Virus record (IMG/VR): IMGVR_UViG_3300033153_007854
Length of the DNA stretch: 64,000 nt
Source: an uncultured virus (IMG/VR IMGVR_UViG_3300033153_007854)
Lineage: Duplodnaviria > Heunggongvirae > Uroviricota > Caudoviricetes
Strand: one strand, 5' to 3'
Shown: in pieces, positions 7,850 through 46,295 of the stretch
How the letters are laid out: the number at the start of each line of letters is the position of its first letter
How positions within the stretch are numbered: the stretch's first letter is position 1
The notes under the pieces: model-generated
Seen by the model: the letters and a program-made list of their open reading frames with translations, nothing else
What the model was told of the DNA's origin: nothing
Database searches by the model: none
Made by a program: the position numbers and the translations under genes

Positions 7850-7917
7850 TGGCACTAATTACATCAGATTGTATAAATACGTTTGTAACCAAAGTCACAC
7901 GCCTCTTAATGGAAAGA

Positions 7918-8067
7918 TGCTCCCGTCGGGATTCGAACCCAAGTCCCCGGCTATCTTTCGGGCGGTTGAACCTCAATCCAACCAAGAATGTGCGTCCACA
8001 TTCCACTGAACCGAATCAGTTTCCCGACGAAAGGCCGGAATGATTGTCCTGTCTACACTACGGGAGC
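7918..8067 (-). tRNA. tRNA-Glu(TTC) with 75-nt intron (7953-8027)
   Basis: GCTCCCG/CGGGAGC acceptor; CCGGC CT TTC G|intron|A GCCGG; perfect bulge-helix-bulge at 37/38. Confidence 0.93.
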
Positions 8068-8076
8068 ATATTATAG

Positions 8077-11073: not shown

Positions 11074-11074
11074 A

Positions 11075-11295
11075 TGGTACACCATCTGCGTGGCGTTGGA
11101 GCCAAAGGCGCACCCTTCACGGATGTAACCCCTGTTGCTCAGTGGCTCCCGACTCGGAAGGTATAGGTGTGATGCCTTCTGGTCTACGCCACACAGTTTT
11201 GGTTTTCCATGCCCGAAGGCGGCAAAGGAATGCCCGATGAATGGGTCTATCCTACTACCACTCTCGGCATTGACCAGTAAGTAGAGCATGGTATA
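11075..11295 (-). ncRNA. Candidate structured ncRNA ending in stem + CCA
   Basis: Terminal stem TATACCAT/ATGGTGTA-CCA and nested helices; lies between two tRNAs. Confidence 0.5.
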
Positions 11296-11307
11296 TAATC
11301 GTTATGA

Positions 11308-11382
11308 TGGGCCTGGGGCGATTCGAACACCCGGCTTCTGGATTAAGAGTCCAGTCCATTTACCTAGCTATGGTACAGGCCC
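11308..11382 (-). tRNA. tRNA-Lys(CTT)
   Basis: CTGGA CT CTT AA TCCAG. Confidence 0.92.
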
Positions 11383-11385
11383 ATG

Positions 11386-11444
11386 AAGGGATGCCGGGAC
11401 TCAAACCCAGTTGAACATGGCTCCTTCCAGTCGCCATCATCCCT
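11386..11444 (-). ncRNA. 59-nt anticodon-less tRNA-like RNA, copy 1
   Basis: 7-bp acceptor, 5-bp arm with GACTGGAAGGA loop, GTTCAA linker, T-arm; covaries with 27215..27273. Confidence 0.75.
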
Positions 11445-11463
11445 ATGGTATCCTAAAATGAGA

Positions 11464-11694: not shown

Positions 11695-11997
11695 TCAGTC
11701 TTCGAAGTGAGATATTACCTTCGGAGAGAGATGGTCTTTCTTCACCAATGCTATGACCATGATTTTCGCAGAGTGGAGCGGGGTCACGCTTTTGAGGTGT
11801 TTCTCTGCAATGGCCTCATCTGGCAGGAATACGTTGGTTTTGAGTTCGACTCCCTTGACTCCCTTTATCTTCTTCACGGTTATACTGACATCCCCGAGTT
11901 CGAGAATCAGTGGAATCCGGTCTTCTTCTTCTACTACGTTCATTGTCTTCTGTCCGAATTCATTCAACGCCTTATCCTTGTGAATTACCACAACCAT
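11695..11997 (-). CDS. Hypothetical protein
   Basis: GGTGACACGATG start; class A promoter. Confidence 0.75.
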   Translation of the reverse strand: MVVVIHKDKALNEFGQKTMNVVEEEDRIPLILELGDVSITVKKIKGVKGVELKTNVFLPDEAIAEKHLKSVTPLHSAKIMVIALVKKDHLSPKVISHFED

Positions 11998-13870: not shown

Positions 13871-14009
13871 AGCCGCTGGCAGGATTCGAACCTGCAATCT
13901 GTCCCTGGCTTGTGTACGTCGGGTATGGCGGGAATTGAACCCACGGACCATCCTCCATACCCGCAATCCATTACAAGGGGACCGCTTTAACCATTGAAGC
14001 TACAACGGC
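13871..14009 (-). tRNA. tRNA-Thr(TGT) with 65-nt intron (13907-13971)
   Basis: GTCCC CT TGT A|intron|A GGGAC; BHB helix CTTG/CAAG. Confidence 0.9.
13920..13962 (-). ncRNA. tRNA minihelix (acceptor + T-arm) nested in the tRNA-Thr intron
   Basis: GGGTATG-GAGGATGGTCC-GTGGG TTCAATT CCCGC-CATACCC-G. Confidence 0.65.
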
Positions 14010-17147: not shown

Positions 17148-17297
17148 TGGTGGGAACGACGGGATTCAAACCCGTTCTTCATCGCCTTTCTCCAACTTCT
17201 TGTACCCTAATCGGGCGGCGACTATATGCTTTACACACTCACCGAATATGCTTGCGGTTGTCTCGGCTACCTCCTTGCGGAGTTACATCACGTTCCC
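17148..17297 (-). ncRNA. Expanded tRNA-like RNA (anticodon not assignable)
   Basis: GGGAACG/CGTTCCC-ACCA acceptor, T-arm ACGGG TTTGAAT CCCGT, about 75 nt extra in the D/anticodon region. Confidence 0.6.
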
Positions 17298-17459: not shown

Positions 17460-17596
17460 TCATATCCAAGTCATATCCAAGTCATGACCTAAGAATGACC
17501 TAAGAATGACCTAAGAATGACCTAAGAATGACCTAAGAATGACCTAAGAATGACCTAAGAAATCATCCATTTGATGTCCATTTGATGTCCATTTGA
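17460..17596. repeat. Three adjacent 11-bp tandem arrays
   Basis: TCATATCCAAG x2, ATGACCTAAGA x7 (17484-17560), TCCATTTGATG x2.8 (17566-17596). Confidence 0.95.
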
Positions 17597-17670
17597 CCTT
17601 ACTGAGTTCAATCTGGAACAATACATATCTGACGGTCTATAGTATTGATGGAATCGCCTGAAATTAAAGA

Positions 17671-20159: not shown

Positions 20160-20471
20160 TTAGGCGGCGTTCCCCTCCATGATTCTGTCCAACATCATGA
20201 AGAATAGTGCGATGAGTTCGAGCAACGCCGCCATTGGAAGTTGGTTATCCCGTGCCTCGTATCGGTACATGGTCCTTTCCTGCTTGGTCGGCTTGAAGTC
20301 CATCGGCTTCATCGGCCTGTCGAACCTGTGGACCTCGTTGTGACACGCTCTGCACAGAACCTCGATGTTCTCGGGCTCGTCGCCCCCGCCGTCCCTCGTC
20401 GGGACGATGTGGTGTCTCGTCAGGTTCGTGTGCGGTGTCTTGCAGTTCGGGTTGGAACATCCCTTCTTCAT
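20160..20471 (-). CDS. HNH endonuclease
   Basis: LTRHHIVPTRDGGGDEPENIEVLCRACHNEVH. Confidence 0.85.
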   Translation of the reverse strand: MKKGCSNPNCKTPHTNLTRHHIVPTRDGGGDEPENIEVLCRACHNEVHRFDRPMKPMDFKPTKQERTMYRYEARDNQLPMAALLELIALFFMMLDRIMEGNAA

Positions 20472-21405: not shown

Positions 21406-21606
21406 TGGCGTGGGGAAGGAGATTTGAACTCCCGTGGCAAATTAATGCCCACCCGATTTCCAGATGGTTCTGACCAAACTCGATTCCCGTGAAACGGGAG
21501 CCGAATAGCGTTCCCGTGAACAGGAAACCTTTCCGTTCCCGTGATACGGGGGGTCCAGTCCCGAAATTCAAGTCGGGGGCGATTGACCAGGCTCCGCCAT
21601 CCCCAC
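21406..21606 (-). tRNA. tRNA-Ser(TGA) with ~109-nt intron (21458-21566)
   Basis: CCCGA CT TGA A|...|A TCGGG, long variable arm, G73, CCA encoded. Confidence 0.82.
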
Positions 21607-25202: not shown

Positions 25203-25248
25203 GTGATGTATTCAGATGTGTTACAAACGAATACGATTGAAGATGAGG

Positions 25249-25400
25249 TGGGCCAGGTTGGATTTGAACCAACATCCACCCGTCGGTTAAGCTTCTCAGG
25301 CCAAATCCGCAAAAGCAGAACAGAGAAGCACCAGCCCCGAATCCATCGGGAAATGGGAATTGAACCCATGGCCGAAGCCTTCCAGATTAGCCACTGGCCC
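25249..25400 (-). ncRNA. Expanded tRNA-like RNA with two T-arms
   Basis: GGGCCAG/CTGGCCC-A acceptor; T-arms ATGGG TTCAATT CCCAT and GTTGG TTCAAAT CCAAC. Confidence 0.6.
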
Positions 25401-27130: not shown

Positions 27131-27132
27131 AG

Positions 27133-27204
27133 TCTGGGGAGAGAGAGTCGAACTCCCGAGGAATGGGTCTACAATCCACCGCCATACCACTTGGCTATCC
27201 CCAG
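27133..27204 (-). tRNA. tRNA-Tyr(GTA)
   Basis: C1-G72 (archaeal/eukaryal Tyr identity), short variable loop, TT GTA GA. Confidence 0.88.
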
Positions 27205-27214
27205 ATTGAATAGG

Positions 27215-27273
27215 AAAGCGTGTCGGGAATCAAACCCGATTGAACAGGGCTCATTCCAGTCACCCTCACGCTT
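27215..27273 (-). ncRNA. 59-nt anticodon-less tRNA-like RNA, copy 2
   Basis: AAGCGTG AGGGT GACTGGAATGA GCCCT GTTCAA TCGGG TTTGATT CCCGA CACGCTT T. Confidence 0.75.
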
Positions 27274-27307
27274 ATGTTATATACTATTTGTTACCAGATT
27301 TGGAAAG

Positions 27308-27381
27308 TGGAGGAGGGGAGATTTGAACTCCCGACATTTCAATTTTCAGTCGAACGGACCCCCAGGCTGTCCTACTCCTCC
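27308..27381 (-). tRNA. tRNA-Phe(GAA)
   Basis: TTCGA CT GAA AA TTGAA. Confidence 0.9.
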
Positions 27382-30176: not shown

Positions 30177-30695
30177 TTAATGTGTGTCGTTATATTCCTG
30201 ACACCAGTTGATGATGGTTTCCTCAGTCCATTTGAAATGACGATTCTTCCGTATGTTTCGAGATTGAATCTTTCCGACAAGCTCTGCCCGCTTCTTCATA
30301 TCAACCATGTCGTAACCCATATATTGATTTCGTCTTCCAATTGGCCCCATTGAAATGTATTCGAGCATAACCCCGATATGTGGTTTTTTTATTACTGAGT
30401 AGGGAGATATTGTAGTTAATAATTTCTTTAATGATGGTCTTGCATAAATGCTTATTTCTGCCATTTTGCATCCTGTTCCGTAAGTACGAAATCGGGTATT
30501 GTAATTGAGGCCCAGGTCATCAAATATATGTTTAATGGTTTGGAACCATTTTCCTTCGGACATAGCGATGCTAAACGAGGGGGTGATGGCTATCCGATTC
30601 CCAAATTTTCTTTTTGATTTTCGTGTGATGACGTTGAAATAAATTGAGCCTTCGCCATCAATCAATCCCGCCATCCAAGCTATTGTGGTAGACAT
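30177..30695 (-). CDS. Free-standing LAGLIDADG homing endonuclease
   Basis: IAWMAGLIDGEGSI...LLTTISPYSVIKK; own promoter at ~30725. Confidence 0.85.
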   Translation of the reverse strand: MSTTIAWMAGLIDGEGSIYFNVITRKSKRKFGNRIAITPSFSIAMSEGKWFQTIKHIFDDLGLNYNTRFRTYGTGCKMAEISIYARPSLKKLLTTISPYSVIKKPHIGVMLEYISMGPIGRRNQYMGYDMVDMKKRAELVGKIQSRNIRKNRHFKWTEETIINWCQEYNDTH

Positions 30696-31385: not shown

Positions 31386-31601
31386 CTATTGACCTCTCGT
31401 TCCTGGCGTCCTCTTGTAGCCATGGTGTTTATCGTGACAATCCCTACAGAGAATCCTCCAGTTGGATGGAGTGTCCTCGCCACCTTTGGATAAAGGCTTG
31501 ATATGATGAATGGATAGGTTATTTTCAGCTCCGCACTTTGAGCATATCCCTACACGGAGCATTCTGCGGCGTTGCCTGTTAATGTAATTGATGTGACTCA
31601 C
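31386..31601 (-). CDS. Minimal HNH endonuclease
   Basis: CSKCG...HHIKPLSKGGEDTPSNWRILCRDCHDKHH. Confidence 0.85.
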   Translation of the reverse strand: MSHINYINRQRRRMLRVGICSKCGAENNLSIHHIKPLSKGGEDTPSNWRILCRDCHDKHHGYKRTPGTRGQ

Positions 31602-32269
31602 GCCATCACCACGTTGAATCGGGGAGTTCTGCCCGTCCAATGTGATTCTTCAGCCAAGTCGTCCAAGAACTCCTGAACGACGAGCTTGCCGAACTGCTTG
31701 ACCGTATCGGCCTTCACGACGATGCCTTCCATGTTGGCCACGGTGGAGAATGCCGACCTCTTGTTCTCACAGAGGGGAAGCAGGTCATCGAACTTGACCT
31801 TCCCCCTGAACATCACGGGAGCTGTCGTGAATCCGAGCCCGTTGAGGATTTTTATCTTGCGGTCCTGAGAGATGATGCGGCCAATACCTTCTTCGATAAT
31901 GTCGAAGGCGATGAACCTGTCTGGAAGCCTGTCATACACGATATTGTGCTGAACGTGCGCCCACTCGCCGACGACCCTGGTGTGCCTCGGTATTCCCTCG
32001 ACCTTTTCGATGTTCGTCCATACCCAAGGCCACGCTCCTTTGAACTGGGTGCATTTGTCATATTCGGATAAATGCCTGTTCCGAGTGTAGATGACTGGCT
32101 TGCCGTTCTTGAAAGCAATAGACATCTGGGAGCCGTCAATCTTCTCCTCAATTCTGGTATCCCCCTTCAGTAACCTCTTGACCTCACTGGGGTTGAGATA
32201 ACGCTTATCGTGCCTTGCGGATATGGCGGAATGAGGTATTCTCAGTGGTTTAGGATACTTCAGTTGCAT
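31598..32269 (-). CDS. ATP-dependent RNA ligase (nucleotidyltransferase domain)
   Basis: YPKPLRIP, motif I EEKIDGSQ, GEW, FIAFDI, EGIVVK, GKLV. Confidence 0.85.
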   Translation of the reverse strand: MQLKYPKPLRIPHSAISARHDKRYLNPSEVKRLLKGDTRIEEKIDGSQMSIAFKNGKPVIYTRNRHLSEYDKCTQFKGAWPWVWTNIEKVEGIPRHTRVVGEWAHVQHNIVYDRLPDRFIAFDIIEEGIGRIISQDRKIKILNGLGFTTAPVMFRGKVKFDDLLPLCENKRSAFSTVANMEGIVVKADTVKQFGKLVVQEFLDDLAEESHWTGRTPRFNVVMA

Positions 32270-33810: not shown

Positions 33811-34075
33811 TTCATTCCTCTACTACCGTTTCATTCATTTCATCTCGCAGCCATTCGACGAATTCCTCGTCGGTTCGATTCTCGACGAACTTGGCGTAGA
33901 TTGCTTTGGCGAGATTTTCTCTCGGCTTCGTGTAGCAGAGGTTTCCGAACGGGTATCCGCTCTTTCCTCCTGGTTGGCGACCTTCTCGTGCTATCTCATC
34001 GGTGAAGGCGTAGCCATTCCAGAACGTCCTTTGGACTATTCATGGCTGTTCACCTCGTTTGTTTTAAAGTGATGA

Positions 34076-34353
34076 TGCCGGGAGCAGGATTTGAACCTGC
34101 GATGTTTACCCTACGGTACAGATTTCCCAGAAACAAGACCATTTGAGTTTGCTCCTCTTTTAAGTTCAAGCCCCAGAGAGCATGGGCCGCACTTTGGTCC
34201 GGCCCGGCTATAAAGTTGTCCCTCGGTCCTCTACTCGATTCATAGAGGGGGTTGTCTCCATAGTCCCCAGGAGTTTACTTGCTTCCGCCTGAGTGCGGCG
34301 GAGTCCATGCTCTACTCGGTCTGCTCCAATCGACCTGGCTCTGGCATCCCGGC
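34076..34353 (-). tRNA. tRNA-Leu(GAG) with ~190-nt insertion/intron (34124-34313)
   Basis: GCCGGGA/TCCCGGC-A, Leu-type D-arm and variable arm; GCAGA CC GAG...A TCTGT. Confidence 0.75.
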
Positions 34354-34793
34354 ATAAATTAAGAGGCGTGTGACCAACCTGAAGGGGTCCACCCTCATAT
34401 CATAAGGTGCTAACTTCAGGTCAGGCCAAAAGAGTCCTCTGTCGCACAGAAGCCGAAACAACGAAACACGGTGACGATATGTTGAAAACAACCCCGGCAC
34501 AACAAGGAGCCCTTCTAGCAGGCAATTATTGGTGTTTCCACCAATGAATTCCTAGTATGGATAAAGGAACTCCCGGCGAGATAACGCTTACCCTCGACAG
34601 GGCGTTTCGTAAACGCCGAGGGCATTCGTCTATCCCATTGTGCCAGTTTCATGTTCCTCATCTCCGAGGTATTCTGTGGTATGTCGTGGGGGTTTAAAAA
34701 GATTTCGACAGTCATGCAAACTGTCTTCATCTCGCCTTAAACGTCACTCTCTTTCTTCTTCCAGTATCATGGTCTTTAACGTAAAATGTGACG

Positions 34794-45869: not shown

Positions 45870-45944
45870 CGTGTCACCAAAATTACCTAATAGCTTGGGG
45901 GTTTAAGTACATTTTGTTTGTTATCTATTTTGAGGCGAGGGGGA

Positions 45945-46295
45945 ATGGACGAATATGACCCATGCCCTAACGGGTTTGAACTCGATGAAAGCCTAAATAA
46001 ATGTGTGAAGAAGGTTCCAGGTGGTGCTTCTGATGGAAATGCGGTCCAATCTTATCAAGGGGAGCCATATCTGGGTGGAACAAAGAATGGGCATAAACCA
46101 CAATATCTGAGAATCTCTGTTTCCATCGCATTCTTCTTATTTGGTGTATTCTCAGTTTTAGCAACGAGAACATACCCGAATATTCAAAAAGATTTGTTTA
46201 CGTTCATCACGTTTCTTATTTATTCAGCCATTTCAGTCATAATGATATGTTGGTTGTTTTGGACTTGGATGAGATGTAGCAGGCAATCTCGCTAA
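45945..46295 (+). CDS. Two-TM protein with N-terminal Cys tag
   Basis: MDEYDPCPNGFELDESLNKCVKK. Confidence 0.7.
   Translation: MDEYDPCPNGFELDESLNKCVKKVPGGASDGNAVQSYQGEPYLGGTKNGHKPQYLRISVSIAFFLFGVFSVLATRTYPNIQKDLFTFITFLIYSAISVIMICWLFWTWMRCSRQSR

Follow-up and report, generated by a model that had tools for sequence, protein, structure and literature searches.

The tRNA Array and Its Genomic Setting

The window, that is, the whole 64,000-nt stretch of DNA analyzed here, carries an array of approximately 31 tRNA genes lying on the same strand as two short tRNA-like elements that are found among them. In its default mode ARAGORN recognizes 26 tRNA genes, located between 8076 and 33599 and all on the minus strand, while its intron mode (-i) adds five whose anticodon loops are interrupted by introns of 65-190 nt (Table 1). 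Both of the class-II genes among these five have odd anticodon loops with C33. Two of the spacers within the array have features of their own: that at 11074-11305 (minus strand), 232 nt between tRNA-Lys(CUU) and an initiator-type tRNA-Met, folds at -87 kcal/mol (z -3.67), with none of 200 shuffles folding as well, and may be a further structured RNA, while the region at 17460-17600 (minus strand), between tRNA-Ala and tRNA-Asp, holds several short tandem repeat blocks, such as an 11-nt unit repeated approximately eight times.

Judged by their sequences, the array tRNAs are archaeal in type: the initiator tRNA-Met has an A1:U72 pair, tRNA-His encodes a G-1 facing C73, and the five interrupted genes have their introns in the anticodon loop. 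In addition, a 584-aa protein encoded next to the second element has approximately 16 homologues at 45-51% identity, some of which lie on contigs assigned to MAGs of the Thermoplasmata or Methanomassiliicoccales; the protein of the window itself is on record on a contig of up to 135 kb. The archaeal-type tRNAs and the Thermoplasmata-linked relatives together lead the window to be read as representing a large archaeal virus, or an extrachromosomal element of another kind, with a Thermoplasmata host, in keeping with what a preliminary description of this DNA had guessed from the sequence. Neither a capsid gene nor a terminase gene was seen in the window, and the word virus is therefore used provisionally.

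Coding is dense, proceeds mostly on the strand of the array and mostly involves proteins without known families; the genes that could be identified encode a helicase, a PolB-type exonuclease, an RNA ligase, a dCMP deaminase, and HNH/LAGLIDADG endonucleases. Several of these are interspersed with the tRNA genes, as is a stand-alone protein corresponding to domain 2 of eRF1 (Table 1). Together, the RNA ligase and the GGQ domain would be compatible with a virus that manipulates or repairs the tRNA and translation apparatus.

Location and Anatomy of the Two Elements

The two elements, hereafter copies 1 and 2, are paralogues of 59 nt each that align without a gap and are identical at 45 of 59 columns, leaving 14 differences. 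A pattern of their shared positions, allowing up to three mismatches, occurs at exactly two sites in the window, where 100 shuffles give an expectation of 0.00, and these are also the only sites recovered within the window by nhmmer and by R1, a covariance model built from the two sequences, for which E-values are rough. Similarity between the two sites ends within approximately 7 nt of the elements, which identifies each as a small discrete unit rather than a piece of a larger duplication. The positions assigned to them in the preliminary description were accurate; the elements lie on the minus strand, and the strings given there are the reverse complements of the window sequence at those positions.

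Both copies share one fold, in which a 7-bp acceptor encloses a 5-bp hairpin whose loop has 11 nt, then a 6-nt linker, then a 5-bp T stem closing a loop of 7 nt. The acceptor, the T stem, and a 7-nt T loop containing U54, U55, and A58 are those of a tRNA, but only a single hairpin is present between the acceptor and the T arm in either copy, where a tRNA would have separate D and anticodon arms. A standard anticodon arm is absent from both elements.

Table 1. Positions of the two elements, their parts, and neighboring features in the window
Feature	Position	Strand	Remarks
Copy 1	11386-11444	minus	59 nt; R1 score 89.1 bits
Copy 1 acceptor	5' strand 11444-11438; 3' strand 11393-11387	minus	
Copy 1 middle stem	5' 11437-11433; 3' 11421-11417	minus	
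Copy 1 loop	11432-11422	minus	11 nt
Copy 1 linker	11416-11411	minus	GUUCAA
Copy 1 T stem	5' 11410-11406; 3' 11398-11394	minus	
Copy 1 T loop	11405-11399	minus	UUUGAGU
Copy 1 discriminator	11386	minus	U
Copy 2	27215-27273	minus	59 nt; same register as copy 1; R1 score 89.5 bits
Copy 2 acceptor	5' strand 27273-27267; 3' strand 27222-27216	minus	
Copy 2 middle stem	5' 27266-27262; 3' 27250-27246	minus	
Copy 2 loop	27261-27251	minus	
Copy 2 linker	27245-27240	minus	
Copy 2 T stem	5' 27239-27235; 3' 27227-27223	minus	
Copy 2 T loop	27234-27228	minus	UUUGAUU
Copy 2 discriminator	27215	minus	U
Co-changing loop columns 21/45	11424/11400 (copy 1); 27253/27229 (copy 2)		D-like loop and T-loop position 59
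Common 5' leader	11445-11451 (copy 1); 27274-27280 (copy 2)	minus	AUACCAU (copy 1); AUAACAU (copy 2)
tRNA-Lys(CUU)	11306-11383	minus	directly downstream of copy 1, 3 nt away
Setting of copy 2	27132-27381	minus	tRNA-Phe 27381-27307, 33-nt spacer, copy 2, 10-nt spacer, tRNA-Tyr 27204-27132
tRNA-Glu(UUC), intron-bearing	7916-8068	minus	ARAGORN -i
tRNA-Thr(UGU), intron-bearing	13871-14009	minus	ARAGORN -i
tRNA-Ser(UGA), intron-bearing	21406-21606	minus	ARAGORN -i
Class-II gene, intron-bearing	25247-25400	minus	ARAGORN -i
Class-II gene, intron-bearing	34074-34354	minus	ARAGORN -i; called 'Ser(GGA)'
tRNA-like RNA, 146 nt	17152-17297	minus	leader ending CAU; 7-bp acceptor GGGAACG/CGUUCCC; A73; encoded CCA
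Stand-alone eRF1 domain-2 protein, 134 aa	17864-18268	minus	PF03464, E 4e-18; GGQ intact; beside tRNA-Ala in the array
HNH and LAGLIDADG-type homing endonuclease genes and RNA ligase among tRNA genes	20160-20471, 30177-30695, 31386-31640, 31598-32269	minus	
RNA ligase	31598-32269	minus	

Each element is embedded in the array much as a tRNA gene would be, and the earlier placement of both inside tRNA operons holds, with copy 1 just upstream of tRNA-Lys(CUU) and copy 2 between tRNA-Phe and tRNA-Tyr. In the array, tandem tRNA pairs are joined by N73-CCA-U; the spacer between copy 1 and its neighbor reads CAU after the discriminator, so that copy 1 and tRNA-Lys are arranged as such a pair. The leaders of both copies end in A-2 U-1, the dinucleotide that precedes most array tRNAs. 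Among the 31 tRNAs, A is found at -2 in 27, T at -1 in 23, and C at 74 in 21, and both elements carry A-2, T-1, and C74, the flank signature of the array tRNAs.

Pairing, Covariation, and Selection on the Fold

Comparison of the two copies provides strong evidence, though from two sequences, that the three-helix fold is under selection. All 17 bp are standard pairs in each copy (34 of 34 cells), and the pairs that differ between the copies comprise five with two-sided compensatory changes and two with one-sided changes, none being broken. When the 3' partners are slid by 1-3 columns, only 32-56% of the cells pair and no compensatory pair is found. In simulations in which 12 random substitutions were placed in the stems, all 17 pairs were kept in 5 of 2,000,000 trials (approximately 2.5e-6), and with 14 random substitutions placed anywhere in 479 of 2,000,000. 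The preliminary description had proposed two covarying copies of equal length whose fold is under selection, and each part of that proposal is borne out by these comparisons.

RNAalifold applied to both copies yields exactly the three-helix structure, at -24.1 kcal/mol, while in single-sequence folding this structure lies 2.2 kcal/mol above the minimum free energy in each copy (-21.7 vs. -23.9 kcal/mol, z -2.17, for copy 1; -20.5 vs. -22.7 kcal/mol, z -2.89, for copy 2), and by thermodynamic folding alone the inner helices reach an ensemble probability of only 0.15-0.32. The competing fold of copy 2 breaks three cells across the pair of sequences and, outside the acceptor stem, lacks compensatory changes.

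The differences between the copies are concentrated in the stems, affecting 12 of 34 paired but only 2 of 25 unpaired positions (35% vs. 8%; Fisher p 0.028), in line with the original remark that the stems vary yet pair around near-invariant loops and linker. Such a pattern, in which loops diverge less than stems, would be expected if the loops of an RNA are important. The sole two loop differences, at columns 21 and 45, change together, from G/G in copy 1 to U/U in copy 2, and may reflect a tertiary contact or chance. Taken as a feature of this genome, the elements are genuine, selected, and unannotated.

Relation to Known RNA Families

For the comparison with known families a tRNA was defined as a four-arm cloverleaf scoring at least 29 bits with RF00005. 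At gathering thresholds, Rfam places no family on either element anywhere in the scan of the window, and in searches of 351 nt and 381 nt at E<=10 no family matches either element, RF00005 included, whereas the adjoining tRNAs score 54-65 bits with RF00005 in the same searches; the Rfam comparison proposed alongside the first description thus yielded no family for either copy. Neither copy is called by ARAGORN in its default, intron (-i), or mitochondrial (-mt) modes.

The tRNA-like domain of tmRNA is composed of an acceptor stem, a T arm, and a D-loop analogue, with no anticodon arm, and the elements resemble it in all of these respects. They differ from it in having G3:C70 rather than G3:U70 in both copies and in being 59 nt long, with neither an mRNA-like domain nor a coding insert. 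No tmRNA is called by ARAGORN within the window, the permuted-tmRNA model of Rfam does no more than clip the 5' end of copy 2 (12.1 bits, E 2.2, against a gathering score of 47), and tmRNA is not known from archaea. Further non-decoding tRNA mimics with which the elements can be compared are mascRNA/menRNA (RF01684), the tRNA-like domain of YrlA (RF02553), and the tRNA-like RNAs of gammaherpesviruses, all of which are matured by tRNA enzymes. These RNAs have a four-arm or extended fold and come from eukaryotes, their viruses, or bacteria. RF01684 and RF02553 do not match either element at E<=10, and their weak matches (23.5 and 14-21 bits, far below gathering) sit on true tRNAs.

The closest known kind is that of the t-elements, which are tRNA-like processing signals. 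The t-elements do not decode; their tRNA-like folds are non-canonical and comprise a T arm and an acceptor-like stem (PMC1920247; PMC4326828; PMC3296008; PMC4946936), and the present elements share such a fold. The t-elements are described in two of these sources as substrates of RNase P and RNase Z that set the ends of mRNAs and rRNAs, in plant mitochondria and upstream of the Haloferax 5S rRNA, and that once released can bear non-encoded C/A tails (PMC1920247; PMC4326828). The element upstream of the Haloferax volcanii 5S rRNA is compared here as a tRNA-like processing substrate. In contrast to t-elements, which are located at the termini of the mRNA or rRNA whose maturation they assist, copies 1 and 2 are sandwiched between true tRNAs, and they differ further in being covarying paralogues with conserved loops in a virus-like genome.

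Search for Homologues

Homologues of the elements were not found where they were searched for, which is distinct from their being absent. The scans of sequence collections were exact pattern matches and the genome sets were samples, and the lineage itself is thinly sampled, the closest known relatives being approximately 48% identical in protein. In IMG/VR, an exact pattern of T arm plus linker matched no locus, as did an exact pattern of loops plus linker in which the stems and the central triplet were left free; an exact loop pattern matched 33 loci, none of which had the linker or the T arm. The same pattern of loops plus linker with free stems and central triplet matched seven loci among JGI metagenome contigs, none with pairing stems. 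Protein-guided scans of IMG/VR, based on two neighboring proteins and a 17-sequence alignment, returned no relatives, and a 700-bp blastn query found no match among 50,697 phage records.

Searches with R1 gave a similar outcome. None of the four MAGs holding relatives of this genome contained a match. Weak matches of 21-26 bits occurred in six of 151 class-level genomes and were all rejected on inspection, four being ordinary tRNAs, one a coding region, and one a tandem repeat lacking a T arm, while the single match among 22 order-level genomes was a tRNA already counted at class level. The nearest relative contig examined (120.8 kb) carries four tRNAs and no short acceptor/T-arm element. Comparison with HGTV-1, an archaeal virus reported in a reanalysis to have 34 tRNA genes, three putative pseudogenes among them (PMC13532342), was made over its tRNA-array region (bases 1-62,000), where an acceptor/T-arm heuristic detected no independent short element. 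In a search for mimicry of host acceptor stems, acceptor-stem patterns with up to one mismatch gave 11-17 and 1-4 matches per genome in the four related MAGs, which may not be the host, and none of the matches listed was tRNA-like by eye. Since no homologue was found in the collections searched, the 'RNA family' of the preliminary description comes down to two paralogues in one genome, an outcome that the description itself had counted against its claim, albeit in a lineage sampled as thinly as this one.

Other sequences bear a partial resemblance to the elements. At one contig end of a Thermoplasmata MAG (L049, positions 1-180; G050:C38), tandem repeats of approximately 64 nt contain GATGGCGAGTGGAATGAGCCATG, which is identical to the middle hairpin of copy 1 at 21 of 23 positions and is accompanied by neither a T arm nor an acceptor. 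Within the window, the next matches of R1 and nhmmer after the two copies were rejected, that at 45937-45980 (plus strand) because it is not tRNA-like and that at 13920-13962 because it is an intron minihelix. The latter, at 13921-13962 on the minus strand in the intron of tRNA-Thr(UGU), is a 42-nt acceptor/T-arm minihelix with a 7-bp stem and the T loop UUCAAUU that matches the tmRNA model and R1 weakly (19.4 bits with R1). The 5' part of one of the odd class-II genes (25338-25400, minus strand) may be a third, degenerate module: it contains a hairpin, UGGC-[..CUGGAAGG..]-GCCA, that has an 8-mer in common with the loop of copy 1 and is followed by a T-like hairpin with the loop UUCAAUU, and a possible second 5' acceptor strand, GGGCUGG, starts from 25337.

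A Proposed Non-decoding Mimic of the tRNA Top Half

The elements keep the acceptor end and the elbow of a tRNA and have no codon-reading arm, so that they are probably working tRNA mimics rather than decoders. Quite possibly, if far from certainly, they represent a non-decoding mimic of the tRNA top half that is derived from tRNA, matured by the tRNA-processing enzymes, CCA-tailed, and active in trans. In such a model, the two genes would be paralogues encoding a tRNA-derived small RNA devoid of an anticodon arm, which would be transcribed together with the adjoining tRNAs, released through RNase P cleavage at its 5' end and tRNase Z cleavage after U73, and then extended by CCA into a 62-nt tRNA top half. 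RNase P, tRNase Z, and CCA-adding enzymes recognize acceptor/T-arm substrates and tailing is documented for t-elements, and excision and CCA-tailing to 62 nt would therefore naturally be expected. The resulting RNA would be incapable of codon reading and would instead act in trans by occupying or titrating a protein that recognizes the acceptor-elbow half of tRNA; candidate targets are a host enzyme of tRNA-directed defense or turnover and an enzyme drawing on (aminoacyl-)tRNA away from the ribosome. The roles put forward in the preliminary description, as a decoy, an aminoacyl carrier, or an RNP scaffold, are likewise candidates. A tertiary core or a protein-contact surface would be formed by the near-invariant loops and linker, while the stems would drift as long as they stay paired.

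An alternative, unlikely but still reasonable and especially so for copy 1, is that the elements act in cis as t-elements, recruiting RNase P and tRNase Z to cut the array transcript, with the released RNA a by-product. RNase P and RNase Z are known to act on t-elements with non-canonical cloverleafs (PMC1920247; PMC4326828), and since copy 1 is preceded by a 250-nt untranslated stretch after the ORF at 11695-11997, cleavage at its 5' end could set the 3' end of that ORF's mRNA. Copy 2, conversely, lies between two tRNAs and has no mRNA end to set, and because true tRNAs flank each copy within 3-33 nt and would yield the same cuts, a cis processing role looks redundant. A cleavage signal also needs the acceptor and T arm alone, and yet it is the loop and linker that are best conserved, the unpaired positions being identical at 23 of 25. 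The conservation of loops and linker above that of the stems and the redundancy of a cis role between true tRNAs are the strongest arguments for a mimic acting in trans.

D Arm or Anticodon Arm: The Middle Hairpin and U56

Reading the middle hairpin as a D arm rather than an anticodon arm is favored by sequence comparison but not proven. The length of its 11-nt loop falls within the range of the array D loops (7-11 nt), 6 of 31 of which have 11 nt, while all 29 of the anticodon loops parsed in the array have 7 nt and none has 11. Mean local similarity scores of the loop are 7.8 to D loops vs. 5.6 to anticodon loops, and its ACUGG recurs in the D loops of tRNA-Ile, tRNA-Gln(CUG), and tRNA-Gly(UCC). 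Taking a 17-nt anticodon stem-loop out of a 76-nt tRNA leaves the length of the element, and the 6-nt linker would match position 26 plus a variable loop of 5 nt. The 'D-like arm' of the preliminary description is thus upheld by loop length and similarity but is not the only reading, in that the center of the loop also allows an anticodon-loop reading, C-U-GGA-A-K (K being G in copy 1 and U in copy 2), between tandem G.A pairs.

This second reading would make the elements decoding tRNA-Ser(GGA) without a D arm, in which the middle hairpin is an anticodon arm of five Watson-Crick pairs extended by tandem G.A/A.G, and which would resemble the D-armless mitochondrial tRNA-Ser in having three helices and approximately 60 nt. 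The loop would then run C32-U33-G34-G35-A36-A37-K38, which in either copy conforms to Y32-U33-NNN-R37, with the flanking GA/GA able to make tandem sheared pairs. An earlier form of the argument, in which serine was the sole amino acid missing from the array and the elements supplied its D-armless tRNA, was dropped, as tRNA-Ser(UGA) exists, being among the five intron-bearing tRNAs found by ARAGORN with introns, a result that weakens the missing-serine argument. The 'Ser(GGA)' call of ARAGORN at 34074-34354 is in turn more likely Leu(GAG), having A73 and a D loop identical to that of tRNA-Leu(UAG), and the array therefore still has no Ser(GGA) decoder. Many other G34 anticodons are missing from the array as well, however, so that the GGA gap is not special. 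Several structural features also speak against the decoding reading: the mitochondrial mode of ARAGORN, made for D-armless tRNAs, calls neither copy; no connector separates the acceptor from the middle stem; and the loop has 11 nt rather than the 7 nt of every parsed anticodon loop. The setting is archaeal or viral, where the dedicated SerRS of D-armless tRNA-Ser is not known, and A1:U72, U73, and the missing long variable arm would be a poor fit to the identity rules of archaeal SerRS. Isodecoders that differ at three of seven acceptor pairs and two of five 'anticodon-stem' pairs would, moreover, be unusual. Altogether, a decoding tRNA-Ser(GGA) is considered very unlikely.

Position 56 of the T loop complicates both readings. 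It is U in both copies vs. C in all 31 tRNAs, and fits neither the D-arm nor the anticodon-arm reading cleanly. U56 would weaken the canonical G19-C56 elbow pair implied by a D arm, and the loss of C56 in both copies is what might be expected of a tRNA lacking a D loop as pairing partner. Elsewhere in the window, a U56 T loop occurs only in the 146-nt tRNA-like RNA listed in Table 1, and the restriction of U56 to non-canonical RNAs suggests that a distinct non-decoding class exists in the array. The 146-nt RNA has the T loop UUUGAAU and approximately 115 nt between its acceptor and T arm, and has no match in Rfam.

A bolder version of the mimic, and one that is doubtful, is that the elements found a class of virus-encoded 'top-half tRNA' that would be CCA-tailed, possibly aminoacylated, and held off the decoding pathway, serving as a decoy or as an entrant in ribosome rescue. 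As a decoy, the top-half tRNA would disarm a host immune enzyme that recognizes the tRNA acceptor-elbow. In rescue, it would enter stalled ribosomes in the manner of the tmRNA tRNA-like domain, together with the GGQ protein and the 146-nt RNA.

That the elements are merely decaying tRNA pseudogenes, which lost the anticodon arm by deletion, were then duplicated, and have no present function, is scarcely credible and already disfavored: viral tRNA arrays do contain pseudogenes, as the reanalysis of HGTV-1 illustrates (three putative among 34; PMC13532342), and no homologue of the elements is known from the collections searched, but 17 of 17 pairs are intact after 24% divergence by way of five compensatory double changes, the loops are near-invariant, and length and flank signatures are retained. 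Neutral decay would break pairs, which were all retained in just 5 of 2,000,000 simulations, and gene conversion confined to paired columns is implausible.

Implications for Archaeal Viruses

Non-decoding tRNA mimics are known from eukaryotes and their viruses, from bacteria, and from organelles. In the open-access literature searched, there was no report of a free-standing, duplicated tRNA gene without an anticodon arm in the tRNA array of an archaeal virus. Should the elements prove to be merely processing punctuation, they would be a modest addition to the t-element class. If the RNAs are made and tailed, they would signify that a virus invests in the non-decoding half of tRNA and would point to a reader of the acceptor-elbow alone, whether in host defense, at a checkpoint of tRNA maturation, in an aminoacyl-transfer enzyme, or in ribosome rescue; they would also offer archaeal RNase P, tRNase Z, and CCA-adding enzymes a minimal substrate that is natural and compact. 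If the top-half tRNA reading were true, the elements would represent a translation-rescue or counter-defense module new to archaea and their viruses.
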